A DNA stretch of 64,000 bases from Euglena gracilis (lineage: Eukaryota). Of this stretch, positions 10,791 through 32,028 are shown piece by piece. Every line of letters starts with the position of its first letter. The first letter of the stretch is position 1. Made by a program: the position numbers and the translations under genes. The notes below the pieces were generated by a model. It was not told the origin of the DNA. It worked only from the letters and a program-made list of their open reading frames with translations, and did no database searches. The stretch is taken from contig CP154954.1 of the NCBI GenBank assembly GCA_039621445.1, forward strand, positions 11,340,716-11,404,715, read 5' to 3'.

Positions 10791-10799
10791 AGTGATTTT

Positions 10800-10903
10800 C
10801 TTTTTTTTTTTTTTGTGCTGTATAACAACAACACGGCGGGTAGCACAGCTTCACCCAGACCGTGCCCCGGGCCCAGGGAGATGTCTCTTTTGGCCCTCGC
10901 CAC
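10800..10903 (-). mobile_element. Very short 3' stub of a non-LTR element with poly(A)
   Basis: 10835-10903 matches the 3'-terminal motif at 2419-2485 and is followed on the minus strand by an A14 tail (T-run 10801-10814). Confidence 0.6.
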
Positions 10904-11291
10904 TTTCTTTTGCTTTTCACGCAATTCCGAATTTTCGCGTGAATTCGAGCACATGACAAAAAGAAAAGTTCACCACTCCATTTGAGTCGAATTCTGGGTC
11001 CAACCACGCCTCCCATCAGCCGTTATTTCATTTCCAGAGAATCGGTCAAATTTCACATGCACTGAAATTTGATGTTTGATGATAGTTGTTTTAAACTTGG
11101 ACCAGTCTGGTTTGCAACAGGGGGACCTTGGGGTTTTCTGGATTTTTTTGCTTCAAACCAAAGGGTCCAGTGATTCTGTTTTTCCCATTCTCAACACTTG
11201 CCCATTAATATTTTTTTTAGCACAATTGTTGAAGTTGTCTAAGTTAGTTCCGAATTCAACTTCTTCACCAGTGGTTTTTTTCCAGAGCAAA

Positions 11292-11641
11292 ATGATCGGT
11301 CACGCCCTGCAAGCCGCCACCGGCCGACGTGAGCACCACCCTGCTTTGGTTATGTACCTTCTCACCATCCTTCTCCTCTGTCTTGCCATCCTCCTGGGGT
11401 TCATTGCGCTGTTTGTTCCCTGGGTTCAAATGGATGCCGCCATCGGCACCCGTGTCTTTTCGTACCCATTCAAGACGTGCTATGTTCAAACCTTCAGCCC
11501 TGTACATCAGCAGACTTGCATGGACAACGACTTCATCGTCGGCCCCAAGGGTGCCCCCTTGACCGGAGGAAACAACACGTGCAAGCAATTCCTCCTTGTT
11601 GCGATCGCCCTTGGGTTCGTTGGCTTCCTTATTGCACTTCT
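11292..11641 (+). CDS. Exon 1 of a claudin/PMP22/amastin-like tetraspan membrane protein (257 aa spliced)
   Basis: Polypyrimidine tract + AG (trans-splice acceptor, 11284-11285) just before the ATG at 11292. TM1, a Cys-containing loop and the start of TM2. Splices in frame to 27046; the junction has a CTG repeat, so the boundary is +/-2 nt. Confidence 0.8.
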
Positions 11642-12223
11642 GACAAGGGTTTCGGCTCTCATACTCATACTCTTTCACGCACTTTTCCTCAGTCGATCCA
11701 CACCAAAACTACTCGATTCACACCCTTTCTTCCCCCTATGCTTTGACGTCACAAATCACAGATGATGTTGACCTTATGACGTCATTCCTCAGCTGCACAC
11801 TCCTGTGTGACGTCACACGGTTCCAACTGAACAAGGCGGAATAGGGTGTGGATGGACTTATGAAATTGATGCACAGGCATGAGATATGGAGGTCGGTCTG
11901 ACCAGGTCGGCCCGTCCTCCACTTTTTCATTTGATTGGTTCAAAATGAAAGGAACCACAGCGTTCAAACAAAACTTCCAAAAATGGCCAAAAAAGCCAGC
12001 TCCATAAATCCTGGCATAAGTCCTGGCATCATAAACTGAAAATATTTCGGAAACAAGATTCTTGCTGATACTGCGGGAACAGATGGGAAATTTTGTTTTT
12101 GAACCCTTTTCGGGGAAACCAACCCTCACGGTTCCAGAGCGGCTCGGTGTTTGACCCGGTCCAAAATCCATGTTTCTTTTCCCATCCATGTTTCATTTTA
12201 GCTTGTTGTGTGTGGAGCACTTT

Positions 12224-12386
12224 GGGTACCCCTTCGTTAAACGACCCCCACCGAAAATTTTCAAGTTGGATGGGTTATTTGAGGAGTAGGGTTAGGGCAA
12301 CATGGCCATGTTGCCCTAACCCTACCTCCTTCAAATGACCCAATGATAACCCATTTGGGTGGGGGTCGTTTAGCGAAGGAGTACCC
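12224..12386. mobile_element. Small TIR element with a 5-bp TSD
   Basis: TIRs GGGTACCCCTTCGTTAAACGACCCCCACC / GGTGGGGGTCGTTTAGCGAAGGAGTACCC; ACTTT at 12219-12223 and 12387-12391. Confidence 0.65.
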
Positions 12387-12646
12387 ACTTTTGTTACTCC
12401 TTCGCTAAACGACCCCCACCCAGAATTTTACAAGTCGGCCTTGGAAAAGAATAAAAAGAAAAACAGGGTTAGGGTTCGGGTTGGGTCAGGGTCAGGGTGG
12501 GGTTAGGGTCAGGGTGCATCGCACAATAACGTGATAAATTGGCCCCTACAGGGTACCAGCTACCCCAAAGACCCGCCCAACCAGGGTTAATACACATGGG
12601 TGGACCCTCGCTCTGCGCCTTCGGCGCCTTGCTCGGGTCCACCCAT

Positions 12647-15600
12647 GTTTTTTATACACAAATTGTGGCTGAGCCCAGATTTCAGCCTGAAAACGTGTTC
12701 AGCCAGGGGGCCCCCGAAGGGGGCCCCCTGGCTGAACACGTTTTCAGGCTGAAATCTGGGCTCAGCCACAATTTGTGTATAAAAAACGTGTTCAGAGCCC
12801 GCCAAATGCCTGCCCTGAAATTCGTGGTCATGATTCACGCAAGGGGTCAAAAACGCGAATTTGTGAAATTCGGACCCAAAAAAACGGCGCCCTCACTGAA
12901 AACGTGCCTGAACACAGATGCCTTCACTGAAAACGTGTCATTGCCACAAATGCCCTCACTGAAAACGTGCCTGAACACAGATGCCTTCACTGAAAACGTG
13001 TCATTGCCACAAATGCCCTCACTGAAAACGTGTCACCCCCCCTTTTTTTCTTTTTTTCCTTTTTCCCACAGCCCTGCCAATATGGCCAAACGCACGGCAA
13101 ACTTTGTGAATGGTCTTTTGCCACCACCCCCTAGGACGAAACTGTTCCTGGCTGCTTGCCAAGAAGCCGAAGGTTGACCCTTCATGGCACCTTGCTGGCA
13201 CAGGGCAACACAAAGAAAAAGTCCGGCTCCGTGGGTGCAGAGCTTGCTGCTGTTGCCAACTGTTTGGAGTTCGCCAAACTGTGTCAACATCGGCAAGCCT
13301 CTTATCCTGAGCTGGATGCTTTCTTTGTTGCCTGGACGGGATGGGAGCTGGAACCCAGCCTGTTGTTCGATCAGGCGAGCGTCATCGAACAATGTGTGGC
13401 TCAACGTGAGCAGCAGTCGGGTCGAAAATCAGGACCTGACCAGTGTTCCCTCTGTCTTTCCCACCGCCGAGCAACGTTCCGCTCCTGCGGTCAGCTCTGT
13501 TCCCTCCCCTGACCAACCCCCTGTGCCTCGTGCTGTGTCGACTGCCTATAAAACAGGAGAAATGTGGTTTTTGTGGTGTTGCCATTCCGAAAAATCCAAA
13601 TTGTGTGGAGCTGAACAAAGTTGTGTGTGACGCCTGCGGTTTGGCATATCATTTTCATTGCCAAGATTTGCGGCGGCCAAAGTATGGCTCTTTTTTGTGT
13701 AAAGCCTGTCGTGTGCCGTGATTTTTGCCCCTTCCCTGTCGTTGTGCCAAGGCAACCTAGCCTTCTTGTTGTCGTCTTCTTCGTGTTGTAGAGTGCCCCC
13801 GACCTGCCTCACCCGTTGAGGACCACCCGGCCTCTCAACCGCACGCCGATTTTTCCTGATAGCGATTTTCGTTTCTTGCTGGGGGTTGCCACAGATGCCC
13901 TCACTGAAAACGTGCCTGAACACAGATGCCTTCACTGAAACCGTGTATTGGGGCTCTGGCTTCACGCCCGAACCGGCGTTCCAGAACGCCGGTTCGGCGC
14001 AGAAATTTTTGCGCCGAACCGGCGTTCTGGAACGCCGGTTCGGGCGGGAAGATAGCGTCCAGGGGACCGAAAATAAAAAGTGCCAAAAAGTGTTCAAAAT
14101 GCTTAGTAGACATGTGGCAATCACATTTGAGCAGTTTTTGGGGGGTAATTGGCCAGATATTGGGGTATTTTGTGCAACAATTTCCATTCGGCCAAATTTA
14201 GGGAATTTTTGAAATAGAATACCATGCAGCACACCTGAAATCTGAGGCCATCTGCTGAAAGCCCCTGAGAAGAGCTTTCGATCGATGGGCAACATGGCCG
14301 GTGAAACATGGGAATTTCGACTTTGAAAACAGGGTCGGAAAATGCTATCGCCGATTTTCAGAGTGCTCTGCAGTATAGCTGAGTTCTGTGGGTACCAAAT
14401 GAAAGGCCTTGGCGAGAGCTTTCGATTGATGTGCTGTATGGCACCTCAGGTGTGGGATTTCACAAATTAGGATGTCAAATTTTGGAATGCACGATCGCTG
14501 AAAATAAGCGCTGTGTGGATTATTGCTGAATCCTGTGGCCATCTGCCAAAAGCACTTGAGAAGAGCTTTCGATCGATGGGTAACATGGCACCAGACGTTT
14601 GAAAACTTCAATCGGCCGGTCGATATGGCCATGCGCCCAAAGGAGCCCAAAAATGCTCCAAAATGTTCGAAAAATGGGTATTTAGGCCGAAATTGGCCTG
14701 GATTCCTTGAACGCCGGTTCGGGCGTGAAGCCAGAGCCCCTAATCCACGGTTTCAACAACTGTGTCCAGAACGCCGGTTCGGACCAGGGAACTGTGTTCC
14801 AGAACGCCGGTTCGGGCTGCCGCCCGAACCGGCGTTCTGGAACACAGTTCCGTGGTCCGAACCGGCGTTCTGGACACAGTTTTCGTATCAGAAGGCTCCG
14901 TGCGGATTTCCGGTGGTCGTCATCGTGGAGGTCGGGCCGACCATGATCGGGTCGTACAATTTAGTCGGCCGTCCATGGTCGGCCCGACCTGTGGAGGTCC
15001 GGCCGCCCACCATTTTTTTCGCACCACCCCCCCCCCCCCGGTTCCGTGCGGATTTCTGGTGGTCGCCATCGTGGAGGTCGGGCCGACCATAACCTAACCC
15101 TACCTCCTCCTACTCCTTCATTGACCGGCTTGAAAAATTTCAAGTCATCTGACCAGTCATCTGACCAGTTCAGGTCCCAATCTGACCAGCAACAGATTTC
15201 AAGTCAGAGGACAACAGGCCGGCTGTTCAGAAACGTGATAAATTGGGCCCTACAAGGTACCAGCTACCCCAAAGAGCCGCCCAACTAGGGTTAATACACA
15301 TGGGGGGACCCTCGCTCGGCGCCTTCGGCGCCTCGCTCGGGTCCCCCCATGTTTTTAACCCTAGTTGGGCGGCTCTTTGGGTTCGCTGGGTACCTTGTAG
15401 AGACCAATCTAACAACGTTGAGCGGGAAATGTTCTGCTGTTTGGATAAGAATCGTAACCCTAACCCTACTCCTTCAAATAACCTCATAAATTCTCTTTGG
15501 ACACAGGAAAACGCCATCAGCATACTTGAGTGCTAAGTCCTTTTTGTGCAAAATTTTGCCATTATATTGAAAATCCGATGGGGAGAGGTGTTCTTTTGCC

Positions 15601-16048
15601 AAAAGTGGCCCAAAATGGGCATATCCCCCCCAAGTTTTTTCATATCCACCCCCGATTGGGGGGTTCTGGAGCCATTTGGGTGGGTTTTGACTGGTGTTGG
15701 GGTGATTTGGACAAAAGTTTTTTTCAGGGGGGGGGGGGCTTAAATCTCCAAAAAGGGGGGGGGGGGAGTGCAAAAAAATGGTGGTCGGGCCGACCAGGTC
15801 GGGCCGACCTCCACAGGGGGTCATGGTCGGGCCGACCATGGTCGGCCCGACCTCCACAGCGACCACCACCGGAAATCCGCTCGGGGCCTTCACTGAAAAC
15901 GTGTCATTGCCACAAATGCCCTCATTGAAAACGTGCCTGAACACAGATGCCTTCACTGAAAACGTGCCATTGCCACAAATGCCCTCATTGAAAACGTGTT
16001 CATGACCACGAATTTCAGGGCAGGCATTTGGCGCTGAACACGTTTTTA
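12647..16048 (+). mobile_element. Hairpin+TIR element carrying a PHD-finger pseudogene
   Basis: Perfect 141-bp palindrome 12647-12787 with a GAA loop. Inverted repeats 12780-12833 / 16000-16048. Subterminal CACTGAAAACGTG repeats. Interrupts a foldback repeat whose intact copy is at 15234-15410. Confidence 0.75.
13082..13721 (+). pseudogene. Frameshifted PHD-finger protein gene
   Basis: Pyrimidine tract + CAG acceptor, then ATG at 13082. C-terminal C4HC3: CGFC...CDACGLAYHFHC...CKAC. Confidence 0.75.
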
Positions 16049-16164
16049 ACCTTGGTTGGGCGGCTCTTTGGGTTCGCTAGAGGCCAATATAACGAACCTG
16101 AGTGGGAATGGTTCAACTGTTTGCATGAGACTCTTAACCCCAACCCTACTCCTTTAAATTATAT

Positions 16165-17381
16165 AAAAATCGTGGGCATAACCCGTATACAGGCCGTATA
16201 ACGGGTCAAGGGCGCCGTAGGCGCCCTTGACCCGTTATACGGCCTGTATACGGGTTATAGCCCACGATTTTTCTGTAACCGTTAATTAAGAGGCCCGGCG
16301 CCTGCCCTGTATTTCGTTGATGTGCTTCACGCCATGGTTTAGGGCACTTTTGGGGCGTTTTTTTTTGCCCAAAATTTTCAAAAAATCCAATTCACGAAAT
16401 ACAGGCTGTATTTCGTGAATACCCAATTCACAAATACAGCCTGTATTCGTGAATTGAAAATAACGCCCTGTATTCCGTGAATAGACACCAAAATGTGAAA
16501 ACATTGGCCAGATGACCTGGAACACATTGATAACACACCCCTGGTCCTGGAAAACGAGATATGGATGTAAAGCCAAGTTATAGGGGGGCACTTTGGGGGG
16601 GGGGGGGGCGGCGCCGAAGGCGGCCGGTCCCCCCGCAAAGGCCCCCACAATGCTTTTCGTTTTTAGAGCTTTTTAGTGCCATTTTCACACCTTCACACCA
16701 TGTTTCTCCTCACACTGTTCTCCAAAAAATGGCGAAGAAAGCGGCAAACACCATGGACAGAATGTTCACACAACCCCAAAAGTTGCTGAATTTTTGGCCA
16801 CAATTAAGCAGGGTTGGGAGAACAGAAAGAACCCTACTGTTGACCCCCTGCACGATGACCTTCTGCTGGAGGCTGACAAAAAGAAAGCGTCCGGAATGGA
16901 AGGGACAGAGCAATCCGCATTTGCTCACCTCCTTGAAATCGAGTGCAGTGCGATGTTTGTTCCCTTTCATACCACTGGCGTTGTGTGCATTTATGCATGA
17001 GCCCAAACATGGGTCATGGGTGTGTCATTCGTGCAAACCTCGTTAGCTTTCCCGGCGTAAATCCACGGCACTTTGCTATCTGACGTTGCACTAGTTGTGC
17101 ACCGCCTTCATTTATCACCTAGGACATGCCATTCGATTTTCTTTTGCTTTGTGCATTTGGTTTTTTTCTGAATTACTTCAGACGATGTGATGCAAGAAGG
17201 TTTCTAGTTTCAGAAGCTGTTATAAAAACAAAAAAATACAATTCACGAAATACGGCCTGTATTTCGTGAATACCCAATTCACAAATACAGCCTGTATTCG
17301 TGAATTGAAAATAACGCCCTGTATTTCGTGTTCACACCCACGAAATACAGGGCAGGCTCCGGGCCTCAATTCACGGTTACA
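16165..17381 (+). mobile_element. Second hairpin+TIR element with an internally deleted PHD-gene homolog
   Basis: Palindrome 16165-16272 with a GTA loop. Inverted repeats 16274-16317 / 17340-17381. Subterminal CACGAAATACAG repeats. Confidence 0.75.
16729..17046 (+). pseudogene. Deleted homolog of the 13082-13721 PHD protein
   Basis: MAKKAAN vs MAKRTAN; VDPLHDDLLLEADKKKASGMEGTEQSAFAHLLE vs VDP-HGTLLAQGNTKKKSGSVGAELAAVANCLE; PKHGSWVCHSCKP vs PKYGSFLCKACRV. Confidence 0.7.
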
Positions 17382-17395
17382 ACGTCATTACTACA

Positions 17396-18315
17396 AAAAA
17401 GAGGTGGCGGACGCCGGTTCTGTCCAAAGCCCGGCGTCCGGAACGGCGGGCTTTGGACAGAACCGGCGTCCGCCACTTCTTGTTTAAGCCGGCGTTTTAG
17501 AGACGCCGGGCTCAGGACAGAACCGGCGTCCCCAACCTTCGGCCAAAGGACACTCCCAGGACCAATCTCCGACCACTGATCTGCAATGTCACACCACTTT
17601 GCACTTCACCAAATTCCGGCGATCGCGAGGGTATTTCTGGCTGTGTCAATCGTCCAGGTATAAAATCACCCCTCGATCAAAAGCTCTTTTCATCAGACGA
17701 CTGGCGATCACCACCAAATTCAGCCACGTCGCCTGGAGCTCTTATTTTCTGTCAGTGGGAAATCCTAATTTCACAACTCTGGTGCCCCCCCAAGGCCCTC
17801 AGGTCGTTGATTCGAAGAGGAAAAACGTTTCTGTAGGGTTTATTCAGCATCTTAAACCAAAAGTCACTGAAGATTGCTACAAATTTCGACTCAGATTCTG
17901 GCCGATCCGACCATCGCGAGCGTATCTCGGGCTGCGTGCAACGTTAGGGTACCAAGTTACCCCTCGATCGAAAGCTCTTTTCAACAGACGACCAGCGGTG
18001 CTCATCAGATCTTTCCACGCTGCACGGTACTCTATTTCCAAATCTGGGCCGATTTTCATGAGATTTGGATATCCACCCCACTGGTCCCCAGATGGCAAAA
18101 TTCATTGTCTTTGATGGTTGAAACACTCATACCAGCACCTTAGGGCCACTTTTGGGCACTTTTGGTGACATTTTTAGGAATGAAAATCGGACGCCGGGCT
18201 TTGGACAAAACCGGCGTTCCTAATGCCGGGCTTTAGGACAGAACCGGCGTCCGGAAAGCCCGTGGGGGGGGACGCCGGTTCTGTCCTGAGCCCGGCGTCT
18301 CAAACGCCGGCTTAA
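17396..18315. mobile_element. Third hairpin+TIR element (non-coding)
   Basis: Palindrome ~17396-17483 abuts the TIR TTAAGCCGGCGTTT...GACGCCGGGCTCAGGACAGAACCGGCGTCCC (17484-). Its inverse ends in CTTAA at 18315. Confidence 0.7.
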
Positions 18316-18401
18316 TACCAAATTTTGGGGCTCAAGGGGGCTTCCTTGTCCACATGGGTGGAACGAGTGTATACTGAAAAAAATAGACACTCAGACAGTG
18401 T
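18316..18401 (-). ncRNA. Spliced-leader (SL) RNA gene copy, possibly a pseudogene, 3' end abutting a TIR element
   Basis: Minus strand: 27-nt exon ACACTGTCTGAGTGTCTATTTTTTTCA, then donor GTATAC, a TCCAC/GTGGA stem-loop and an Sm-like site AAAATTTGG (18326-18318). The exon matches the SL at 1101-1127 in 25/27 positions. Confidence 0.85.
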
Positions 18402-18687
18402 ACACAGTACACGGAGCGGGGCGGACAAGGAGCCCCACCGGGCATTCACTAAGGTGGGCGGGCGGTTTGACGGTTTCGGCGCTTGCTCTTTGATTTCGCT
18501 GGATGTCAAATTTTTGGCTCGGCGCTTCGCACCGGGCCGAAAATCGGTCACCCGGACCACGTTTAGGTGGGGGGGGCCCCCCCCCCCCCCAGCTGTCCTT
18601 ATATCGAACCCTGGTCGACCCCCCCCACCAGGCCCTCCTGTTTTGCCCTGCCAGAGGGTCACGGTGAGAGGTGCGGTTGGGGTTTTA

Positions 18688-18950
18688 CCCCCCCCCCCCC
18701 TAGTCGTACGACCACCCCTCATTTACGACGACCCCCCCGGTCACAGGTTGCAGGTCATGGGGGTGTTATGACCCCCCCCCCCCCGGTCACAGGTTGCAGG
18801 TTGCGAAAAACTTAACACCACCTTCCCTATGACCGCCACCTCATTTACGACCACCCCCCGGTCACAGGTTGCAGGTTATGGGGGTGTTATGACCCCCCCC
18901 CCCCCCGGTCACAGGTTGCAGGAACCCGGTCATACGACTAGGGGGGGGGG
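18688..18950. mobile_element. TA-flanked MITE
   Basis: TIRs C13-TAGTCGTACGACC / GGTCATACGACTA-G10, TA on both sides, internal tandem duplication. Confidence 0.65.
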
Positions 18951-19608
18951 TAGTCTTTTTTCGAATTGGGCCAAATTTTGACAAATTACCCTGTTTCTCA
19001 ATGTTCAGGATAGCAAATCCCCTTTTGGGCCGAAGGGTCGGTGGGCTTTATCTTTCTTCACCCCTGTTCATCTGCCGCCTTTGGGTTTCTGCCGCCTTTG
19101 GGTTTCCTTCTGTGTGCCAAGGTACGGCAGTGCCATGTGCAAACCCTACCCCCAGGGTTGGATGGGCAGCCCTTCGGTATTGAGGTAGGTGGTAGGGGGG
19201 GGGGTCGCTGAGCTCTTATCCCTTTATGGGTAAGAGCGAAGCTCACCCCTGGGGGAAAACCCCCCGAACCCCCCCCCCCCCCCGTCGGGGCCACCTCGGG
19301 AACCGGCGGATTATCACCATGATCCCGGCCCCGTTCCCGAAATTTTTTTTCAGTCGCGAGCGGCTGGATTTCTAGTTTCCGAATCACCTGGGTTTGACCC
19401 CCAACTCCCCGCCAGGCCCGAGTTATTCACGCGCGAAGGGGTCCAAACTGGGTAGGATCGGCCAGCCCCCCTTTTTAAGCCCCCCCCCCTTTGGACTCTG
19501 CCATTTCGGCCAAAAAAAAATGTCAATTTTCAAAATATCTCCAAAATGAAGCAAAATCAAAGGAAATGTCCGGAGACCTAATTTGAAGCCCTTGGAACGC
19601 CCCATCTA

Positions 19609-19789
19609 CCACCCCCCCCCCTTTATTGTCCCCCCCCCCCTTTATTGTCCCTGGGCCCCGGCCGACGGGGGGTTTTTTTGGCCCGGCCAATGAAATTCCT
19701 TTGGTACCCCTTTATTGTCCCCCCCCCCTTTATTGTCCGGTCGGGCCTCCCGGGGGCAGGTCGGTGGGACAATAAAGGGGGGGGGGTGG
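19609..19789. mobile_element. TA-flanked MITE
   Basis: TIRs CCA-Cn-TTTATTGTCCC / GGGACAATAAA-Gn-TGG, TA on both sides. Confidence 0.65.
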
Positions 19790-20109
19790 TACTGGTATTT
19801 TGATTTCCCCGCAACTCCCCGCCTAGCCCAAGATACGGCCGTTTTCGGCGCAGATGGCCGTTTTGTACACTTTTCCCACTGTTCGACCAAGTCGTTTTCG
19901 GGGGGGGGGTGGTCAAAAAATCGATGTTTTCAACATTCCTCAAAAATGATGCAAAATCAAAGGAAATGTCTGGAGACCTAAATTGAAGCCCTTGGAACGC
20001 TCTATCTACTGGGATTTGGTTTCCCCGCAGCTCACCGCCCAGCCCGAGATACGGGCGTTTTTTTGGCCAATTTAGGCCATTTTGTACACTTTTCGACTTA
20101 GCCGTTTTC

Positions 20110-20530
20110 GGCCAAAAAAGTCGAAATTTTTTTTGCCCGGAAGGATGTTTTTTTAGCCTCCCGGACCCAGAAAAACTGTTTTTGAGCCGAAAACGAGCGT
20201 TTTCCGACCTGCCGGCGCCCCGTTTTGGGCCGCCAACTTTGGGTCAAAACCGGGTCAAAAAAGTCGAAAAAAATCGAAAAATATGCTTTTTGCCCGAAAC
20301 GATGTTTTTTGGCCTGCCGGACCCAGAAAAACTGTTTTTGAGCCGAAAACGAGCGTTTTCCGACCTGCCGGCGCCCCGTTTTGGGCCGCCAACTTTGGGT
20401 CAAAACCGGGTCAAAAAAGTCGAAAAAAATCGAAAAATATGCTTTTTGCCCGAAACGATGTTTTTTGGCCTGCCGGACCCAGAAAAACTGTTTTTGAGCC
20501 GAAAACGAGCGTTTTTCGACCCGCCAGCGC
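20110..20530. repeat. 156-bp tandem repeat (~2.7 copies; resumes at 23596)
   Basis: AGCCGAAAACGAGCG recurs at 20185, 20341 and 20497. Confidence 0.85.
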
Positions 20531-23500
20531 GGCCCCGAGCGAGAAATTGGTGATGGACTTTTTGGTGGTCGCTAGCGACTAGTCGCTAGCGACCATGGTC
20601 GCTAGCGACCATTTTCTAGCGACTAGTCGCTAGCGACCATTGGTGATAGGGTCGCTAGCGACCACCAATTTTAAGTCCACCCCGGTCCTAGGCGGTAGAC
20701 TGGGGGGGGGGGTCCTGGGTGGTCGGCCGACTAGTCGGCCGACCACCCAATTGGTCGGCCGACTAGGACTGGTCGGCAGCTAGTCGGCGAGACGGGGGGG
20801 GGGGGCCTGGGTGGTCGGCGGACTAGTCGGCCGACCACCCACTCTAATGTAGTTACGGGCCAGTCTCGCCGACTTTTTATGAAGAAAATTGTATGCAAAC
20901 TAGTCGGTGGCTAGTCGGTGGGCATAAAAATGGTCTGTGGCGGGTCCAAACCACCCGGAAATGGTCCGGATGGGGCCAAATAAGTGCCTTACACCAACAG
21001 GAACACCCTCAGATGGAAATTTTTGGTCGGTGGGGGGTCGGTGGGCCCTTGATGGGGTCCGGAGGGGTAAAAAACCAATGACAAAACAGGGATTACATGA
21101 AAATCCTTTAGAAATGCAAGCATTCTGCATCAGGACAGGCTGAAAACTCCCCCCTCCACCCCCACCCGAGCCCAGATAACAAAATCCCTTCTATGTTGGC
21201 AACATACTCGGGGGCTAAGTCACTTTTGTGGCTCACTTTGGCATAGGCGGGGGGGGCTCCGCCCCCCCCCCCCCCGCACCCCCCCCTCAAATAACAAAAT
21301 CCCTTCTATGTTGGCAACATACTCCGGGGCTAAGTCGTTTTTGTGGCTCACTTTGGCATAGGCGGGGGGGGGCTCCGCCCCCCCGCACCCCCCCCCCTCA
21401 AATAACAAAATCCCTTCTATGTTGGCAACATACTCCGGGGTTAAGTCGTTTTTGTGGCTAACTTTGGCATAGGCGGGGGGGGGCTCCGCCCCCCCCGCAC
21501 CCCCCCCCTCAAATAACAAAATCCCTTCTATGTTGGCAATATACTTGGAGGGCTAAGTCCTTTTGTGCAAAATTTGACTTATATTGACTTATATACAACG
21601 GATAGAGGTGTTCTTTTGCCAAAAGTGGCCCAAAATGGACATTTTCCCCCAATTTTTTTGCATATTCACCCCCGATTGGGGGGTTTTGGAGCCATTTGGG
21701 TGGGTTTTGACTGGTTTTGGGGTGATTTGGACAAATTTTTTTCTCGGGGGGGGGCTTAAAAGTCGGCGAAACTGGCCCGTAACTACATTAGAGTGGGTGG
21801 TCGGCCGACTAGTCGGCCGACCACCCAGGACCCCCCCCGCCTGTTTCGCCGACTAACTGCCGACCAGGCCTAGTCTGCCGACCAATTGGGTGGTCGGCCG
21901 ACTAGTCGACCGACCCCCCAGGGCCCCCCCCCCCAGTCTACCGTTTGCCACTGTCCACCCCCCCCCTCTAAAAAAGTTTTTAAGCCCCCCCCCTCCAAAA
22001 AAAATTCATTCAAATATGAAGGAAAATGACTCGAAACCCACCCAAATGCCTTCAGAAACCCCCATTCGGGGGTCCATCTGCAAAAAATTTTGGGTAATAT
22101 CTTCTTTTTGCGCCAGTTCTGTGAAAGTTGTCTTTGTCCAGGAGATAAGGAGCACGATTCGGCCTTCCTTGCCTTGCACACACAAGGGGATTTTGTTATT
22201 GGAGGGCGGGGGGGTGCGGGGGAGGGGGGGCAGCCCCCCCCCCCGCTAGACGACCAAGGGCGCCGAAGGCGCCTTAGGACTGTTTTGTTTACGGTGCGCG
22301 TGGCATTACATGCGCGCCTGGCGCTTGGGTCGGTTACCCCCGGAGGGGATTTTGTTTTTGGAGGGCGGGGGGGGGTGCGGGGGGGGGCGGCAGCCCCCCC
22401 CCCCTCTAGACGACCAAGGGCGCCGAAGGCGCCTTAGGACTGTTTTGTTTACGGTGCGCGTGGCATTACATGCGCGCCTGGCCCTTGGGTCGGTTACCCC
22501 CGGAGGGGATTTTGTTATTGGAGGGCGGGGGGGTGCGGGGGGGGGGGGGGCGGCAGCCCCCCCCCCGCTAGACGACCAAGGGCGCCGAAGGCGCCTTAGG
22601 ACTGTTTTGTTTACGGTGCGCGTGGCATTACATGCGCGCCTGGCCCTTGGGTCGGTTACCCCCCGGAGGGGAGTTTGTTATTGGAGGGCGGGGGGGGGGT
22701 GCGGGGGGGGGGCGGCAGCCCCCCCCCGCTAGACGACCAAGGGCGCCGAAGGCGCCTTAGGACTGTTTTGTTTACGGTGCGCGTGGCATTACATGCGCGC
22801 CTGGCCCTTGGGTCGGTTACACCACGGAGGGGATTTTGTTATTGGCGGGCGGGGGGGGTGCGGGGGGGGGCGGCAGCCCCCCCCCCCCCCCGCTAGACGA
22901 CCAAGGGCGCCGAAGGCGCCTTAGGACTGTTTTGTTTACGGTGCGCGTGGCATTACATGCGCGCCTGGCCCTTGGGTCGGTTACCCCCCGGAGGGGATTT
23001 TGTTATTGGAGGGCGGGGGGGAGGGTGCGGGGGGGGGGCGGCAGCCCCCCCCCCCCCCGCTAGACGACCAAGGGCGCCGAAGGCGCCTTAGGACTGTTTC
23101 GTTTACGGTGCGCGCCTGGCTTTTGTTTACAGTGCGCGTGGGCCGACTGAGTTCGCATATCGGGGTTCCTTCGGGAGCACAGTTTGGCCCTCCTACTGCA
23201 GCCTTCTCCGGGGGGGGGGTGTCAACCCCCCCCCCCCCCGCACCCCCACCCGTCCAACTGAACTCCTGGACAAAGACAACTTTCACAGAACTGGCGCAAA
23301 AAGAAGATATTACCCATTTTTTTTGCAAATGGACCCCCGAATGGGGGTTTCTGAAGGCATTTGGGTGGGTTTCGAGTCGTTTTCCTTCATATTTCAATGA
23401 AAAAAATTTGGAGGGGGGGGGCTTAAAAATTTTTTTAGAGGGGGGGGGTGGACTTAAAATTGGTGGTCGGGCCGACTAGTCGGCCCGACCACCAATGGTC

Positions 23501-23595
23501 GCTAGGCCATCACCAACAGTCGCTAGCGACTAGTCGCTAGCGACTAGTCGCTAGCGACCACCAAAAAATCCATCACCAATTTCCCGCAATGAGCC
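20531..23595. mobile_element. Non-autonomous TIR element with a 9-bp TSD (Mutator-like)
   Basis: TSD CGCCAGCGC at 20522-20530 and 23596-23604. TIRs ...GAAATTGGTGATGGA...GGTGGTCGCTAGCGACTAGTCG. Contains ~115-bp (21170-21560) and ~163-bp tandem arrays. Confidence 0.8.
22185..23115. repeat. ~163-bp tandem array, 6 units
   Basis: CTAGACGACCAAGGGCGCCGAAGGCGCCTTAGGACTG recurs six times; units differ mainly in G/C homopolymer length. Confidence 0.9.
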
Positions 23596-23930
23596 CGCCA
23601 GCGCCCCGTTTTGGGCTGCCGACCCATTGACTTTGGGTCAAAACCGGGTCAAAAAAGTGGAAAAAAGTCGAAATTTTTTTTGCCCGAAACGATGTTTTTG
23701 GGCCTCCCGGACGCCAAAAAAAATGTTCAAAAAATTTCAAAAAATGAGCATTTTTTGGATCAATTTTCAAAGAAAAATCAGGGAAAAGAAAAATTGACCG
23801 ATTTCGACCCGATTTTCGGCCCTTTGCCCGTCCGTGAAATCGAAAAATTTTCCCCCCCCCCCCCCCAGTTTCGAGGTAGGAGGGGGGGTCCGACCCCCCC
23901 CCCCCTTCGTGTCGGGGGGGTCCAACCCCC

Positions 23931-25704
23931 GGCTCCGTGCGGATTACTGGCCATGCTAGTTCTGGAGGTCGGGCCGACCTAGGTCGGGCCGACCTTTGGC
24001 CATGGCTTATCGACCTCTGGTGGTCGGGCCGACCAGGTCGGCCCGACCTCCAAAAATCCGCATTACCCCCCCCCCCATTTTCAATTTTTAAGCCCCCCCC
24101 CCTCAAAATTTTGATTCGCTTAATTCAATGTAAAATGCAAGGAAACCCATCAAAATGTCCCTAAAAAAGTCGGAAAATGTCCCATATTGAAAAAAAAGGG
24201 GGTGAAAGGCCAAATCAGTTCCATGGCCAACCCCAAACCATAATCCCAACCCCAAATAAAACCCTTTTATCCCTTTCATTAACAAAATAAACCCCTTTTA
24301 TCTGCCAATCCCTTTTATCCGCCAACCCCTTTTCCGGTGCAAGCCGACCTAACCCTATCCCTTTCATTAACAAAATAAACCCCTATTATCTGCCAACCCC
24401 TTTTCGGGTGCAAGTCGACCTAACCCTATCCCTTTCATTAACAAAATAAACCCCTTTTATCTGCCAACCCCTTTTATCTGCCAACCCCTTTTCGGGTGCA
24501 AGTCGACCTAACCCTATCCCTTTCATTAACAAAATAAGCCCCTTTTATCCGCCAACCCCTTTTCGGGTGCAAGTCGACCTAACCCTATCCCTTTCATTAA
24601 CAAAATAAACCCCTTTTATCTGCCAACCCCTTCTCGGGTGCAAGTCGACCTAACCCTATCCCTTTCATTAACAAAATAAACCCCTTTTATCTGCCAACCC
24701 CTTTTATCTGCCAACCCCTTTTCGGGTGCAAGTCGACCTAACCCTATCCCTTTCATTAACAAAATAAACCCGTTTTATTCGCCAACCCCTTCTCGGGTGC
24801 AAGTCGACCGAACCCTATCCCTTTCATTAACAAAATAAACCCGTTTTATCCGCCAACCCCTTCTCGGGTGCAAGTCGACCTAACCCTATCCCTTTCATTA
24901 ACAAAATAAACCCCTTTTATCTGCCAACCCCTTTCATCTGCCAACCCCTTTTCGGGTGCAAGTCGACCTAACCCTATCCCTTTCATTAACAAAATAAACC
25001 CCTTTTATCTGCCAACCCCTTTTATCTGCCAACCCCTTCTCGGGTGCAAGTCGACCTAACCCTATCCCTTTCATTAACAAAATAAGCCCCTTTTATCCGC
25101 CAACCCCTTTTCGGGTGCAAGTCGACCTAACCCTATCCCATTCATTAACAAAATAAACCCCTTTTATCTGCCAACCCCTTCTCGGGTGCAAGTCGACCTA
25201 ACCCTATCCCTTTCATTAACAAAATAAACCCCTTTTATCTGCCAACCCCTTCTCGGGTGCAAGTCGACCTAACCCTATCCCTTTCATTAACAAAATAAAC
25301 CCCTTTTATCTGCCAACCCCTTGTCGGGTGCAAGTCGACCTAACCCTATCCCTTTCATTAACAAAATAAACCCCTTTTATCTGCCAACCCCTTTTATCTG
25401 CCAACCCCTTCTCGGGTGCAAGTCGACCTAACCCTATCCCTAACCTAACCTAACCTAACCCTTTTCCATCCCCAACCTTGACATTTTGGCAGTTTGCAAA
25501 CCAAATTGAGAGGAATTTGGTTGGGGGGGGGGGGCTTAAATTTCAAAAAAGGGGGGGGTAATGCGGAATAGTGGAGGTCGGGCCGACCTAGGTCGGCCCG
25601 ACCACCAAAGGTCGATAACACCTAGGTCGGGCCGACCATGGTCGGGCCGACCATAGGTCGGCCCGACCTCCAGAACTAGCAAGGCCAATATTCCGCCCGG
25701 GGCC
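23931..25704. mobile_element. Non-autonomous TIR element with a 9-bp TSD (Mutator-like) enclosing a minisatellite
   Basis: TSD CCAACCCCC at 23922-23930 and 25705-25713. Ends GGCTCCGTGCGGA / TCCGCCCGGGGCC; GGTCGGGCCGACC subterminal motifs. Confidence 0.72.
24270..25460. repeat. Minisatellite of 71/88-bp units (~15 copies) ending in (TAACC)n
   Basis: Unit CCCTATCCCTTTCATTAACAAAATAAACCCCTTTTATCTGCCAACCCCTTTTCGGGTGCAAGTCGACCTAA with an optional 17-bp internal duplication. Confidence 0.92.
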
Positions 25705-26240
25705 CCAACCCCCCCCCCCCCAAGGCTTCCCATCCATCCCTGCCTACCCCAGAAATAATTAATTTTTTAAGTAATTTAAGTAATTATTTCTGTATGTGCG
25801 AAATGGGATTTTTTCTCGATTTTCGGTATCTTTCTGGTGATACGTTGGTTTTTGAGGGTGGGTGGGCGAGGGCCGCTGGACCTGTTGTTCCAAACTTCCA
25901 ACAGGTCGGTCCGACCTCAGGTTGGCTGCCGGGCAGACCAGGCCAGGGCGTCGCTAAAGCCGAAGGGGACCCCATCCCCCAGGGGGTTCCGCCCAGCCAG
26001 TCTTTTTCCATCCCCGGACCCCCATCCCCCACCCCATCGACGAGAATATTTTCCAGCCTCTGAGCTGGACCCCCTTGGGGAGTCGCAAAGCAACGCGGGG
26101 GGGGGGGGGTTGATGCAGTGGACTTGGGCATCCTCATTGACCACGAGAGGTCAGCCCAACCACCAAAACCGCCACGGCCAAAAATCCACCCAGGGTGCTC
26201 TGAGACACCCCAGCCTGTCCTCCATTTCTTTGTCTTCTTA

Positions 26241-27009
26241 CCTCCCCCCCCCCAAGCCCAATGAACACCCTTGCCCAATGAACAGGGGGTGTTCGGACCG
26301 TCTAGATTGTCACCATATACTTTTTTTGCGTCGGCAAGGAAATATTCCTTTGTTGCTGTTGTGAGGATGCCAGTGATTCTGATTCAGGTCATGGAACTGA
26401 TTCAAGTCAGGCTTCCGTATTTGCGGGGGGTCGACCCCCCCCACCCCCCTGCATGGTGGGTGGGGGGGGGGGGTCGACCCCCCCCACCACCCTTCCCGCA
26501 TTTTCGGGAGCACCAATTTTTTGGACACAAAAAAAAATTCCGGCGCCTTCGGCGCCGGGTGGTTTTTTTTTTGACCCGTTTTGGGACCCATGTAGGGGGT
26601 CCCCCCAAAAACCACCCAAACCTCAATTTTTTCACACCTTCCAAAAATTCAACGTTTTCTCAAAATTTTGATTTTGAGAGTTTTTTGAAGCAAAAAATGC
26701 CATTGAAAGTCCAAAAAAAATCCAAAGAGAAAAAATGTCAGTAAAATTTGATTCTGCCAAAGAAAGAAATTTTTTTCTGGCCAACATCCCCGTTTTCCCA
26801 AAATCGGTGAAAATGCTGTGGTGGGTGGGGGGGGGTCGACCCCCCCCACCAGGCCTTCCCGTTCTGCCCTGACGTGCACTGTACATGCACGTTTCAAGGC
26901 TACACTGAGAAGGTGACAGGATTAGTGAACACCCATGTCCAATGAACGCCCCCCGTTCGGACCGTCTAGATTGTCACCTTAGTGTTCATTGGGCTTGGGG
27001 GGGGGGAGG
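26241..27009. mobile_element. TA-flanked MITE
   Basis: TIRs CCT-Cn-AAGCCCAATGAACAC / GTGTTCATTGGGCTT-Gn-AGG, TA on both sides. A related end is at ~62886-63035. Confidence 0.72.
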
Positions 27010-27045
27010 TACCTGGCATTGAAAACGGGCCGAAATTCTTCCACT

Positions 27046-27118
27046 GGTCTTGATTCCACTTGTGTTTGTGATCCTCAGACTGTGGTCACGCCCTTTGATC
27101 CTGGCCATCATTTGCCAG
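27046..27118 (+). CDS. Exon 2 of the claudin/amastin-like gene
   Basis: Encodes (L)VLIPLVFVILRLWSRPLILAIICQ. Both flanks base-pair with the distant intron ends (11645-11658 with 27027-27040; 27122-27135 region with 31607-31620). Confidence 0.75.
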
Positions 27119-30100
27119 GTCCAGGCATTTTCTGAAGTCAGGATGTCCCACCCGCCATTGGCAGCACTTTCTCTGTGCGGATTTCCACGGATCCTAACTG
27201 GGTGGGGCGCAAGGTTGGCATTTTTTTTAAAAGAAAGCAAAAAAAAGTTTTTTTCCCAAAAAAAAAACACACCAAAAAGCAAAATGCAAAAATGAAAAAT
27301 TTGCATTTGAATGCATTTGAAAATGCAAAAATTGTTTGTTTTTTTCATTGAAGAACACCAATCAAAAAAAAAACCCTCAAAAAATGTTTTTTTTTTGGAA
27401 ATTGACAAAGAATGTTTTTTTGGTCAAATCGGGGAAATTCACCCGTTTAGGTCAGTGGATTTCCATTCAGGGGCCCACTTCGGTCAGTCGATTTCCAAGA
27501 CACTGAAATCTGTTGTTGGTAAGATTCGGAATTTTAGTGAAATTTTGGATTTCCACCTTTTTTCGACATTTTTTTGGTTGTGCGGGGTTATGGAAGCGTT
27601 TTGGACCAGACAATGGCTAAATCTTGCAGTCAGATGGCCCCAAGCGGATTTCCGGTGGTCGTCCTTGTGGTGGTCGGCCCGACCTTGTCGACCTGTGGTG
27701 GTCGGCCCGACCACCATTTTTTTGCACTACCCCCCCCTTCTGGAGATTTAAGCCCCCCCCCCCTGAAAAAACTTTTGTCCAAATCACCCCAACACCAGTC
27801 AAAACCCACTTAAATGGCTCCAGAACCCCCCAATCGGGGGCGAATATGCAAAAAGTTGGGGGGAAAATGCCCATTTTGGGCCACTTTTGGCAAAAGAATA
27901 CCTCTCCCCATCGGATTTTCAATATAATTGCAAAATTCTGCGCAAAAAGGACTTATCCCTCCAAGTATGTTGCCAACATAGAGGGGATTTTGTTATCTGA
28001 GGGGGGGGGCGGGGGGGGGGGGGGCGGAGCCCCCCCCCCCCCCGCCTATGCCAAAGTGAGCCACAAAAACGACTTGGCCCCCGAGTATGTTGCCAACTCG
28101 GAAGGGATTTTGTTATTTGAGGTTCGGATGGGGGTCGAGGGAGGAGTTTCCTGCCTCTCGTGATGCAGAGCAGGGAATTTCTTAAGCCGGAGGGTACCCT
28201 ACCCCCCGGGGGGGGGGGGCCCAGCCAGCCAGCACCGCAAATCCAGCCAGCAGCCCAAATTCGGGCTGGGAGCCCCCCCCCCCCCGGGGTCGGGTGAAAT
28301 AAAGTTGGGTCCAGCCCGGCCGGAGGCCGGGCCAGCCGGCCGAAGGCCGGGCCAGCCGGCCGCAGGCTGGCCCGCCAACTGGGCTGCCCAGCTCACTTAT
28401 CCTTGCATTTTTTTCCCCTCATCACAGCCCCTCCATCACAACCCCCCAGTCTTGATCTAGCTCCACCCATCAAAATGTCGAAAATGGCAAAAATGTGTTA
28501 GAAAATTTTGGTTTTCCTCGACCCAGCCCAGCCCAGCCCCCTCCAGCCCCGGACCCACCCCCCCCGGGGGGGTCCAGCCAGCAGCTCAAATCCAGCCAGC
28601 AGCCTTTTTGCCAGCCGGAGGCTGGACCCCCCCCCGGGGGGGTCCTTAAGAAATTCCCTGGTGGTCATAAAAATGGTCTGTGGCGGGCCCAAATCACCCG
28701 GAAATGGTCCGGATGGGTCCAAATAAATGTCTTACACCAACATAAACACCCCCAGATGGAAATCTTTGGTCGGTGGGGGTCGGTGGGCCCTTGATGAGGG
28801 GTAAAAAACCAATGATGAAACAGGGATTACATGAAAATCCTTTAGAAATGCAAGCATTCTGCATCAGGGAATTTCTTAAGGATTTTCTTCATAGACTTAA
28901 ATGTCGGCGGTACTGACCCGTTAGTACATTAGAGTGGGTAGTCGGCCGACTACCCAATACCCCCCCCACCCCGTCTCGCCGACTAGCTACCGACCATTAG
29001 TCGGCCGACTACCCCCCCTCCCAGTCTACCGCCATGCGCCCCGAAGGCCGCCTGGCCGAAGGCCGAAGGCCGCGCAGTTTCAGAACCTGATCAGTTATGA
29101 TGTTATTTAAAGACGTAGGGTTAGGGTCAAGTTTCTATTCCTAACTGTCCCATCCCCTCAACGTTTTTCAACTGGTGTCTGCGGGGGACCAAGCGAACCC
29201 AAAGAGGCGCCCAATTGGGGTTAAAAACGTTGGAGGACCCGAGCGAGGCGCCGACGGCGCCGAGCGAGTGTCCTCCAATGTATATTAACCCTAGTTGGGC
29301 GTCTCTTTGGGGTAGCTGGTCCCCTGCAGGCACCAATTTATCACGCATCAGTCACCGACCCCTCAACTGGTCGATCGACCCTTCAACTAGTTGGTGGTAG
29401 GCTGGAGGGGGGGCTGGCTAGTCGGCTGACTAGCCAATTGGTCGGCCGACCGACCACGCCAATTGGTCGGTCGGCCTAGTCGGCGAGACAGGGGGGGGGG
29501 GCAGTTGGCCGACTAGTCGGCGAAATACCCACTCTAATGTGCTGGTGAGTCAACCACCGACTTTTAAGCCCCCCCCCCCCCTGAAAAAAACTTCGGATGC
29601 GGGTGGAGGGGGGAGTTTTCTGCCTCTCGTAAGAGTCATGGCCAGTTTCCCCCCCCCAGGACCCCCCCAGGACCCACCGCCACCGGGAGGCGGTACCCAC
29701 TGCAAAGTAACCTGAATTTGTGCTGCAAAATTTCTGCCAAAAAGTTGCGGGACCCACCCAGGACCCCCCCCCCCCCAGCACCCCCCCAGGACAGGGTCCT
29801 GGGGGGGGAACTGGCCACAAGTGCATTTCCGGGTGATTTGGGCCCGCCACAGACCATTTTTATGCCCACCGACTAGCCACCGACCAGGGGGGGGGGCTTA
29901 AAAGTTCAAAAAGGGGGGGGTATTGCGGGAAAATGGTGGTCGGCCCGACCACCACAGGTCGGTCGACCACCACCACAGGTCGGGCCGACCATGGTCGGCC
30001 CGACCACCACGACGGCGACCACCGGAAATCCGCACGGAGCCAGATGTCACAACTGGCTAACAGGCCGAATTTAGGATGTCCGTTTCATTTTCTGGAACTT

Positions 30101-30158
30101 CAGAATAAGCATTCTGTACAATTTGGCCAGATTCCGTTGTCATCGCTGGACGCCTGAT

Positions 30159-30376
30159 CAGGCTGTATTTTAGTCGGGTGCCGACCCCACCCAGGGGTGG
30201 GGGGTGCCTGCCTGTGCAGGCACAACCCCGGCGCGGGGAGCCAAAAATAGCCTGTTTTCAAAGGAATGTGCCTGGGCACAGGCCGAAATCCGACCCCCCC
30301 CCCGGGGGGGGGCCTGCCTCGGCAGGCACTCAGACCCCTCCTCCCCCACCCCCTGGGTTGCTAAAAAAACAGCCTG
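30159..30376. mobile_element. hAT-like MITE, 8-bp TSD
   Basis: TSD CGCCTGAT at 30151-30158 and 30377-30384; ends CAGGCTGT...ACAGCCTG. Confidence 0.82.
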
Positions 30377-30636
30377 CGCCTGATGAGAAGCTTTCGATCG
30401 GGGGTGTTTTGGCAACTGTTAAAACCTATTTCCATGGCCCGACGCCTGTCTTGAAATTCCACTGACATCAACGGATTTCAGGCTGAAATTGTTTATGTTG
30501 ATCGCTTTCCAAGACGGCGCCCATTTATGTCGTTTGATCAATTGATTGGCTTCGATTTCAGCAGAGGGCGCCGGGCGGCTTGCTTCGCTCGCTCGCACCC
30601 GGAGCCCCTGCTGAAACCGTTGGTGTCGGTCGATTT

Positions 30637-31245: not shown

Positions 31246-31625
31246 GCTGAATCTGTTAGTGTCGGTCGATTTTTTGTATAAAAATCTATTTTGTCTGGGC
31301 CCGATGCCTGTCTTGAATTTTGTTCGACCGAACCGCCTGGACGGAATTATAGCCAAAAAAGTGGTTTTTGGCCCATTAACAGCCGCCTGAATGGAAATCG
31401 ACTGACGTAAGCGGGCGCCTGAATGGAAATTGACTGACCTAAACGGATTCCGATGTCTTTGAAATTGACCAACCTTTTTATGACGCTTTGTTCCATTTTT
31501 GGCAACATCTAGATTTCCCCAAATTCTTGACCAACGAAACTGAAATTTCTGATTTTATTAATTTAAGTCTGAATTTTGTTCATCCCAATGGTCAAGGGGT
31601 TGTTGCTCAGAAAGGGCCTGGCCGG

Positions 31626-31811: not shown

Positions 31812-32028
31812 GATCAGGGAATTGGACAGCATTAAGGTACTGCATGGCCCTTTTTTTGCACGACATGCATGTCAGAGCATTTTTCCTGCTGTTGTGTTTT
31901 TTTTTGAAGAATTCAAAAATCAAGAATTCAAGAATTCATATTTCCGCTTTTTTAAAAAAAAAGGTTGCTTAAATAGATTTTTTTTTGATTGAGCTCACTA
32001 ATTGCCAGTTGTCCAGCACCCTGTTGCC

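Follow-up and report, generated by a model that had tools for sequence, protein, structure and literature searches.

The model of euglenid non-conventional introns was reportedly derived by Milanowski et al. from the tubA, tubB, hsp90, and gapC genes. Introns of this kind make up 71.8% of the introns in E. agilis. According to the model, positions +4, +5, and +6 of the intron pair with positions −8, −7, and −6 (PMC4770533, PMC6221363, PMC12501133), and Y|R at both junctions is usual, but not obligatory (PMC6221363). The CAG/CTG type accounts for 33 of the 55 introns described in PMC4770533, where the question of structure versus sequence was already raised in print. Nomura et al. (2025) formulated the splicing code 5'-N3CDG-/-CH'GN5-6|Rexon-3'; as they report, splicing was lost when CAG or CTG was altered at one position, knock-in tests revealed sequence constraints on top of pairing, and 38.8% of non-conventional introns are not described by the code (PMC12501133). 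The catalogue of Gao et al. (2024), based on a fragmented draft genome of E. gracilis, gives maximum lengths of 4,682 nt for "ss-invariant" and 5,931 nt for "ss-variant" introns (PMC11170887).

Here we describe an intron of this known euglenid type that is unusually long and carries an off-consensus motif. It is intron 1 (11642–27045, + strand, 15,404 nt) of a gene in a 64-kb stretch of Euglena gracilis DNA, the whole of which is referred to below as the window. Like other euglenid non-conventional introns, it is without GT-AG and has Y|R, a direct repeat at the junctions, an inward stem, and efficient removal; in the catalogue it would be an "ss-variant" (slidable) intron with terminal pairing, at 2.6 times the maximum length given there (PMC11170887). 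It shares with the code of Nomura et al. the 3-nt donor spacer, the 5-nt acceptor spacer, the purine that opens the exon, and pairing that continues past the trinucleotides. However, it has AAG/CTT in place of the CAG/CTG of the common type (PMC4770533), so that the C required by the code at +4 is an A and the G required at −6 is a T, and CDG/CH'G occurs in none of its slide registers; since the +4/−6 pair is A-U, intron 1 belongs among the 38.8% outside the code. The introns on which the code was tested are cassettes of about 50 nt (PMC12501133), as against 15 kb here.

Host gene and the RNA join across intron 1

The mRNA is spliced-leader-capped and combines four exons encoding a 257-aa four-helix membrane protein. 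The acceptor for spliced-leader trans-splicing is the AG at 11270–11271 (+ strand): ATTTTTTTTC stands before 11271 in 166 X21 reads and one X5 contig, and together with the G at 11271 it reproduces the conserved 3' terminus of the spliced leader of E. gracilis, TATTTTTTTTCG (PMC4778363). Exon 1 (11272–11641, +) has its ATG at 11292 and comprises 116 codons and 2 bases, encoding the first transmembrane helix, a Cys-containing loop, and the start of the second helix. Contigs of X1, X6, and X5, starting at 11271, 11289, or 11292 and running to 11639, differ from it in 0–1 letters, and the mean X21 depth is 114+154 (bin 10900–11563). A 3-base variant occurs at 11289 in 37 of 264 reads.

Exon 2 (27046–27118, +; 73 nt; X5 contig piece 27044–27120) encodes ...VLIPLVFVILRLWSRPLILAIICQ, in which RLWSRP is conserved in paralogues, as the alignment to P0002 and P0003 shows. 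It is followed by the RNA-supported intron 2 (27119–31625, +; 4,507 nt), non-conventional or "intermediate" (GT..GG), with CAG at +4 to +6 and CTG at −8 to −6, an end duplex of −22.4 kcal/mol, and borders that slide −1 to +2 over GGT. The loose end behind 27120, seen in X21 (472 reads) and in the X1, X6, and X5 contigs, has its unique match at 31628–31657; this match and the alignment define exon 3 (31626–31811, +). Intron 3 (31812–32028, +; 217 nt) is predicted without RNA from its motif, GAT-CAGG ... CCTG-TTGCC|A, an exact fit to the published code, and from the gap-free P0002 alignment across the junction. The coding part of exon 4 (32029–32193, +), placed by alignment, ends in a TGA stop. 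A shorter version with three exons, giving 210 aa and a stop at 31835, ended incorrectly on the 3' side and gave way to the four-exon model.

The gene is best explained as a member of a euglenid-restricted, unnamed family. The spliced protein aligns to P0002, a Euglena gracilis transcript according to EukProt, without gaps at all three junctions, and the alignment score to the paralogue is 783 for the spliced form vs 411 for unspliced read-through. With phmmer, 20 relatives were found at E ≤ 1e-3, which is evidence for exon 1, while a word-index homologue search at near lengths gave 64 candidates, 0 of them at E ≤ 0.01, the full-length relatives lying just above the length window. Searches against Pfam returned only sub-threshold rows for the exon peptides and an upstream 302-aa ORF, none at the curated cut-off, and four full-length relatives went unmatched. 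A metagenome scan yielded one locus (L001) from 19 pattern matches, an uninterrupted 1,037-nt contig that is uninformative about introns.

Four runs from four studies bear on the splicing of intron 1: X21 consists of raw reads, and X1, X5, and X6 of contigs, X5 being a soil metatranscriptome and the RNA nature of two of the three contig sets being a guess. A joint 11639→27044, which skips exactly 15,404 bases, is carried by 152+252 = 404 reads with 140 start places in the raw RNA-seq run X21 and by one contig each in X1 (depth 2237), X6 (590), and X5 (11.3); a single X5 contig record runs from the spliced-leader tail through exons 1 and 2 into the sequence beyond. The exact join of exons 1 and 2 in RNA, CTTCT|GGTCTTGATT, is that predicted by the first-pass annotation, and neither a joint from the GT at 11649, whose use would have refuted that prediction, nor any other alternative exon 1 joint appears among the 15 best-supported of 99 joints. 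The frame is kept as proposed: exon 1 ends in ...IALL and exon 2 starts with VLIP..., at the same junction as in RNA, and the join also makes coding sense.

The borders of intron 1 are slidable. The cut can shift by −2 to +1 over a CTG direct repeat, where three letters fit either side, and the four resulting registers are CT..CA, TG..AC, GA..CT, and AC..TG; none of these four mRNA-compatible registers (0/4) has GT-AG, GC-AG, or AT-AC borders. In the register 11642–27045, the ends are GA..CT, and each junction reads T|G and is thus of the Y|R kind. Read depth in the flanking bins is wholly explained by their exon parts (for example, in X1, 256.1 = 2237 × 76/664), and unspliced RNA of intron 1 is therefore not detectable; reads of pre-mRNA over either junction are absent from the four runs. 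Removal of intron 1 is thus near-complete. It probably proceeds in one step, and the product may be circular; a back-joint of the intron is absent among the 15 best-supported of 99 joints. Overall, the join in four runs and the gap-free colinearity of the spliced protein with its paralogue support the original reading of a 15.4-kb non-conventional intron.

Predicted terminal helix of intron 1

The 5' arm of the terminal helix, AAGGGTTTCGGCTC (11645–11658, +; intron positions +4 to +17), and the 3' arm, GGGCCGAAATTCTT (27027–27040, +; positions −19 to −6), can form 14 uninterrupted antiparallel pairs, three of them G-U, just as the first-pass annotation had described. Its register was also correct: AAG occupies +4 to +6 and CTT occupies −8 to −6, replacing CAG/CTG. 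Counted from +4/−6, there are 14 pairs inward and 0 outward. The 3' arm is followed by the 5-nt spacer CCACT and the purine-first exon, giving spacers of 3 nt at the donor (GAC | AAG...) and 5 nt at the acceptor (...CTT | CCACT | G). In this register, all structural features of the euglenid non-conventional intron model are present, and only the +4/−6 pair deviates, being A-U, not C-G.

In an anchored chance test, a run of at least 14 pairs in the +4/−6 register was found in 2 of 200,000 random donor/acceptor pairs from the window, and allowing for the four slide registers raises the chance to about 4e-5. The true acceptor ranks first of 28,319 candidate end positions (11682–40000), the runners-up having 13 pairs. 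The unanchored test was much weaker: as the window abounds in G/C-run palindromes, 114 of 5,000 random 25 × 25-nt pairs had energies of −20.7 kcal/mol or lower. Thirty-nine positions in a few clusters match or beat the true partner in pairing with the donor 20-mer, and better unanchored donor partners lie inside the intron, e.g., −26.8 kcal/mol around 13357–13362 and −24.7 at 21052; therefore, pairing energy alone cannot pick the acceptor. The CTT at 21048–21050 is an example of a decoy in register.

The foot of the helix is weak, its first eight pairs being A-U, A-U, G-C, G-U, G-U, U-A, U-A, and U-A. A fold of the terminal 10+10 nt gives only −0.5 kcal/mol for intron 1 vs −12.7 for intron 2, and most catalogue introns lie between −10 and −2 in the 10+U7+10 fold (PMC11170887), in which intron 1 likewise reaches only −0.5. 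Intron 2 shares with intron 1 the gene, the register, the paired ends, and the 3-nt slide; unlike intron 1, it has textbook CAG/CTG, a GT 5' end, and a length of 4.5 kb. The ends of intron 1 have the potential to pair in the register of the family, and the helix probably forms and is needed for splicing.

Repeats inside intron 1 and alternative readings

Intron 1 consists of repeats to 60%, with 53% (8,171 of 15,404 nt) inside blocks bracketed by inverted repeats and more than 7 kb outside them; sequence that is unique in the window is confined to 576 nt at its start and 34 nt at its end. The largest block (12782–16047) is bracketed by inverted repeats of about 50 nt (92%) and encloses smaller nested blocks at 13936–14755 and 15044–15884. 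It is followed by a 1.1-kb block with 51-nt inverted repeats (16274–17381; 88%), an 832-bp block with 50-nt inverted repeats (17484–18315; 96%), a 3-kb nest of inverted repeats with tandem arrays of ~111 nt and ~161 nt inside (20596–23560), and a 1.2-kb satellite with units of 17/71/88/159 nt (24268–25441). Target-site duplications of the bracketed blocks were not obvious at their BLAST-defined ends, no Pfam family of transposon proteins was found at E ≤ 0.01 in the 10 longest of the 32 intron ORFs of at least 130 aa, and Rfam gave 0 matches at gathering scores over the whole window. Accordingly, of the "nested TEs" suggested earlier, the repeat and inverted-repeat structure stands, while a transposon protein domain was not found in the 10 longest ORFs with Pfam. 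That self-folding inserts bring the intron ends close is a conjecture: more than 7 kb sits outside the long inverted-repeat brackets.

Intron 1 itself resembles MITE-like elements in its sub-terminal inverted repeat and the 3-nt direct repeat (CTG) at its borders. Unlike in those elements, its arms are asymmetric, lying 3 vs 5 nt from the borders, and its arm mismatches are all three G-T, which RNA pairing tolerates whereas a repeat in DNA does not. Within the 64-kb window, the intron termini have no further copy.

The lack of any exon–intron read, with junction-adjacent depth fully explained by exons, would also fit an mRNA transcribed from an allele or near-identical paralogue with a much shorter intron, the 15.4-kb form being a bloated haplotype, a silent copy, or a mis-assembly. 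The interior, 60% repeats with kilobase satellites, is hard to assemble, intron length varies between strains, e.g., from 247 to 2343 bp at one hsp90 position (PMC4770533), and the variant at 11289 (37/264 reads) shows that the expressed sequence exists in at least two forms. However, we consider such an origin quite unlikely: the exon contigs of X1, X6, and X5 match the window with 0–1 other letters over ~350 nt, the helix, spacers, and CTG repeat lie in unique sequence right at the assembled junctions, and rapid removal, hence few precursors, is reported for non-conventional introns (PMC6221363). The transcribed allele probably does contain all 15.4 kb. Removal could also be stepwise, with the inverted-repeat-bounded inserts excised as nested non-conventional introns and the final cut made on a much shorter RNA. 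An origin of non-conventional introns from MITE-like elements has been proposed (PMC12501133; PMC6221363), and two internal RNA joints fit this course: the first, 19606→19790, leaves out 183 nt, an element that has perfect terminal inverted repeats together with a direct repeat of TAC, and one of its slides shows an anchored run of 21; the second, 26276→26960 (25 reads and two contigs), skips 683 nt with an end duplex of −26.5 kcal/mol. Yet the skipped stretches are repeated, so the reads may stem from insert-free genomic copies elsewhere, the other internal joints checked are without anchored pairing, and among the 15 best of 99 joints none links an internal site with exon 1 or exon 2. Stepwise removal is therefore judged unlikely.

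A direct repeat plus a stem at a junction is the classic setting for template-switch artefacts of reverse transcriptase, and a CTG direct repeat and a stem are both found here. That the join arose by such a switch, across a hairpin with 3-nt repeat flanks, is nevertheless hardly credible: virtually the whole coverage in the four libraries, each from a different study, comes from joined molecules; joining gives back a conserved protein with the RLWSRP motif and without a gap at the junction; and a jump of 15.4 kb is implausible in itself. The last alternative takes intron 1 for a spliceosomal intron with degenerate sites and incidental terminal pairing; according to PMC11170887, experiments still allow for a dependence of non-conventional splicing on the spliceosome. 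Against it, GT/GC-AG or AT-AC is found in no register, the pairing falls in the exact register of the family (chance ~1e-5), and two further introns of the same gene bear the non-conventional motif, which makes the spliceosomal reading very improbable.

Proposed model and its significance

Taken together, the data make it very probable that 11642–27045 is one non-conventional intron of a spliced-leader trans-spliced four-exon euglenid nuclear gene, with ends that probably pair for its removal. In the proposed mechanism, intron positions +4 to +17 would pair with −19 to −6 after transcription, and the 14-bp helix would place the junctions 3 nt and 5 nt from its foot. The non-conventional splicing machinery would then cut at T|G and T|G and ligate the exons, the intron probably being released as a circle. 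Its present size was probably reached by the insertion of inverted-repeat-bounded non-autonomous elements and satellites into a short ancestral intron.

Models of intron removal must handle pairing partners that are 15.4 kb apart in intron 1, stronger decoy partners between its ends, and a helix foot without the C:G pair that knock-in genetics has called critical. The intron is also relevant to whether removal takes place after transcription, in a single step, and with a circular product, and it offers the EgGSL2 knock-in assay, already in place, a concrete substrate for comparing AAG/CTT with CAG/CTG and a long with a short helix. Its size shows that the length ceiling in the printed catalogue of E. 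gracilis introns stems from the fragmentation of the assembly. It should be noted that the gain is incremental: large numbers of introns are already known to depart from the code, and gene sets that are unpublished or supplementary probably contain long introns.

The first-pass annotation gave structure more weight than sequence, a view that has a single natural example behind it. A broader and still doubtful extension of our model is that the splice site may be set by the register of a long-enough helix, not by C:G at +4/−6, that such a helix may span at least 15 kb, and that inverted-repeat inserts may be excisable by the same pathway. If this is true, register-based recognition and nested excision would explain how Euglena genes tolerate a massive transposon load.

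Removal of intron 1 from the RNA

Exon 1 (11272–11641) is present in 18 listed runs, with 3 further runs listed as additions, and four runs from four studies were aligned to positions 10900–30800: raw reads from RNA-seq (X21), two sets of contigs from the same organism whose RNA status is our guess (X1 and X6), and a soil metatranscriptome (X5). The best-supported joint, 11639→27044, skips 15,404 bases, with three letters fitting both sides; it was found in 152 + 252 reads of X21 (140 start places) and in one contig each of X1 (depth 2237), X6 (590), and X5 (11.3). It is the very junction, CTTCT joined to GGTCTTGATT, that the first-pass annotation had predicted. The depth of junction-containing bins is predicted by the exon parts alone (in X1, 2237 × 76/664 = 256, with 256.1 observed), indicating that unspliced RNA at intron 1 is below detection in the four runs, and no alternative joint of exon 1 occurs among the best 15 of the 99 joints in this region.

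The X5 soil contig contains the exact mRNA (spliced-leader tail, exon 1, exon 2, and the sequence beyond), so this organism, or a relative almost identical to it, was active in the soil sampled. Bases 11289–11291, just 5' of the ATG, are missing in 37 of 264 X21 reads (12 starts), which is an expressed allelic or paralogous 5' UTR variant. Downstream, long G-run/C-run palindromes at 28001–28043 show hundreds of loose ends, as well as strand-switch and "goes back" joints in RNA-seq, all of them probable artefacts of mapping or of the library, caused by homopolymer hairpins that recur across the window.

Class and terminal helix of intron 1

Because the cut can slide from −2 to +1 across a CTG repeat, four cuts yield the same mRNA, with intron ends CT..CA, TG..AC, GA..CT, and AC..TG; none of these four registers has canonical borders. 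The register 11642..27045 has T/G at both the 5' and 3' junctions, a 3-nt spacer followed by AAG at +4..+6 on the donor side, and CTT at −8..−6 followed by a 5-nt spacer and an exon starting with a purine on the acceptor side. The same geometry is described for euglenid non-conventional introns, in which positions +4, 5, 6 pair with −8, −7, −6 (PMC4770533), junctions are Y/R (PMC6221363), and spacers of 3 and 5–6 nt precede a purine (PMC12501133). Together with the RNA joint, these features bear out the class and register first proposed from the sequence. The sole departure from the published code, 5'-N3CDG-/-CH'GN5-6 followed by R, is at +4/−6, which is A-U in intron 1 and C-G in the code; the latter accounts for 61.2% of E. 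agilis non-conventional introns (PMC12501133).

The 5' arm AAGGGTTTCGGCTC (11645–11658) and the 3' arm GGGCCGAAATTCTT (27027–27040) form 14 uninterrupted antiparallel pairs, 3 of them G-U, and a scripted count from +4/−6 gave 14 pairs inward and 0 outward, confirming the end pairing noted earlier. The foot of the helix is rich in A-U and G-U pairs, and the outer 10 + 10 nt of the intron have a fold energy of only −0.5 kcal/mol.

As RNA sets both junctions independently, the fair test of chance is one anchored on them. Of 200,000 random donor/acceptor pairs drawn from the window, 2 reached a run of at least 14 in the +4/−6 register, and the real end ranked first among 28,319 candidate positions (11682–40000 scanned); the runners-up, 23683 and 20136, have 13 pairs each, and in both a pyrimidine comes next. 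The unanchored tests give weak results, which counts against the pairing reading: −20.7 kcal/mol was reached by 114 of 5,000 random 25-mer pairs, and 39 positions match or beat the true partner in pairing with the donor 20-mer (the best, −26.8 kcal/mol, at ~13357–13362), with an in-register decoy containing a bulge at 21048–21055.

Interior of intron 1

Repeats within the window or the intron itself make up 9,212 of the 15,404 nt, 4,317 nt of these in inverted orientation, while only the first 576 nt and the last 34 nt are unique relative to the window. Four blocks bracketed by inverted repeats (at least 40 nt, at least 85% identity), some of them nested, hold 8,171 nt, with no evident target-site duplications, and satellites occupy 0.9 kb and 1.2 kb. 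The ten longest ORFs of the intron gave no Pfam match, and the Rfam scan was also negative. The nested transposable elements of the first-pass annotation are thus seen as repeats and nested brackets and can be inferred from structure only; the bracketed elements look non-autonomous. Folding of such inserts, if it keeps the intron ends close, would cover about half of the length at most.

Three smaller features were observed in the interior. About 8.8 copies of AGGGTT-like hexamers form a short interstitial telomere-repeat-like array (12464–12516). RNA skips a 183-nt element at 19607–19792 that has a TAC direct repeat and, with C-run/G-run ends, perfect terminal inverted repeats; the joints are 19606→19790, 19607→19794, and 19610→19794 (a few to 11 X21 reads, X1 and X6 contigs). 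In one slide, the ends of this element pair over 21 positions in the +4/−6 register, and it is either a MITE that other expressed copies lack or a non-conventional intron in its own right. A 683/684-nt stretch at 26277–26960, with pairing ends (−26.5 kcal/mol), is likewise skipped (25 + 9 X21 reads, X1 and X6 contigs); it sits in a repeated element only ~85 nt 5' of the 3' end of intron 1.

The gene and its place among euglenid introns

In 166 X21 reads, ATTTTTTTTC precedes 11271, the leader joining behind an AG at 11270–71; together with the genomic G, it gives the conserved end of the spliced leader of E. gracilis (leader as in PMC4778363). The open frame upstream of intron 1 ends in FLIALL and continues from 27046 as VLIPLVFVILRLWSRP. 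Exon 2 ends at 27118–27120, and the 30 loose letters past it (472 X21 reads, three contigs) have one window match, at 31628. These RNA loose ends define intron 2 (27119–31625, 4,507 nt), which slides over GGT and reads GT..GG, with CAG at +4..+6, CTG at −8..−6, and an end duplex of −22.4 kcal/mol. Alignment to relatives revealed the fourth exon and a predicted intron 3 (31812–32028, 217 nt; GAT-CAGG...CCTG-TTGCC, then A), an exact fit to the N3CDG/CH'GN5 code with its purine, so that all three introns of the gene appear to be non-conventional.

The relatives come from a phmmer search with the exon-1 peptide (20 proteins at E ≤ 1e-3, 11 at E ≤ 1e-10), in which, by EukProt names, the top match is a Euglena gracilis transcript and the second is from Euglena longa. 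The four-exon product of 257 aa aligns with its 254-aa paralogue without gaps at any junction, the spliced form scoring 783 versus 411 for unspliced read-through. Exon peptides and full-length relatives matched no Pfam family at the curated cut-off. Hydropathy, calculated on an earlier three-exon model, gives three to four hydrophobic stretches, and with the paralogue alignment we read the product as a putative four-helix membrane protein. The gene and its relatives (P0002–P0021) make up a small unnamed family of 240–300-aa membrane proteins, seen in environmental data as well as in Euglena gracilis and E. longa; it has no Pfam family, and its conserved features include the motifs FVPW, CxDNDF, LW..P, and GYSYGF as well as Cys residues. 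Just 5' of the gene, a 302-aa open frame on the minus strand (9942–10850), without a Pfam match, may be a piece of a mobile element.

Non-conventional introns have been well described in euglenids and make up 71.8% of the 649,158 introns of E. agilis (PMC12501133) and 16,151 of 28,337 in an E. gracilis catalogue (PMC11170887). In the literature searched, we found no printed one of such length, and the supplements of PMC12501133, with an improved E. gracilis gene set, may well list it; the word "intron" is absent from the main text of the genome paper (PMC11252322). In 2016, CAG/CTG was found in 33 of 55 introns, and it was asked whether it is a signal or a fingerprint permitting compensatory change (PMC4770533). 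In the test intron of 2025, every single-base change of CAG or CTG abolished splicing, and just one complementary swap at the middle position was functional, which implies that sequence matters besides pairing (PMC12501133).

Taken together, our results support the core interpretation of intron 1 as a genuine intron of a known class, unusually long and off-code, its 15.4-kb length being that of the assembly and probably that of the expressed allele. As hypotheses, structure may outweigh sequence in non-conventional splicing, and folding of the inserts may keep the intron ends close.
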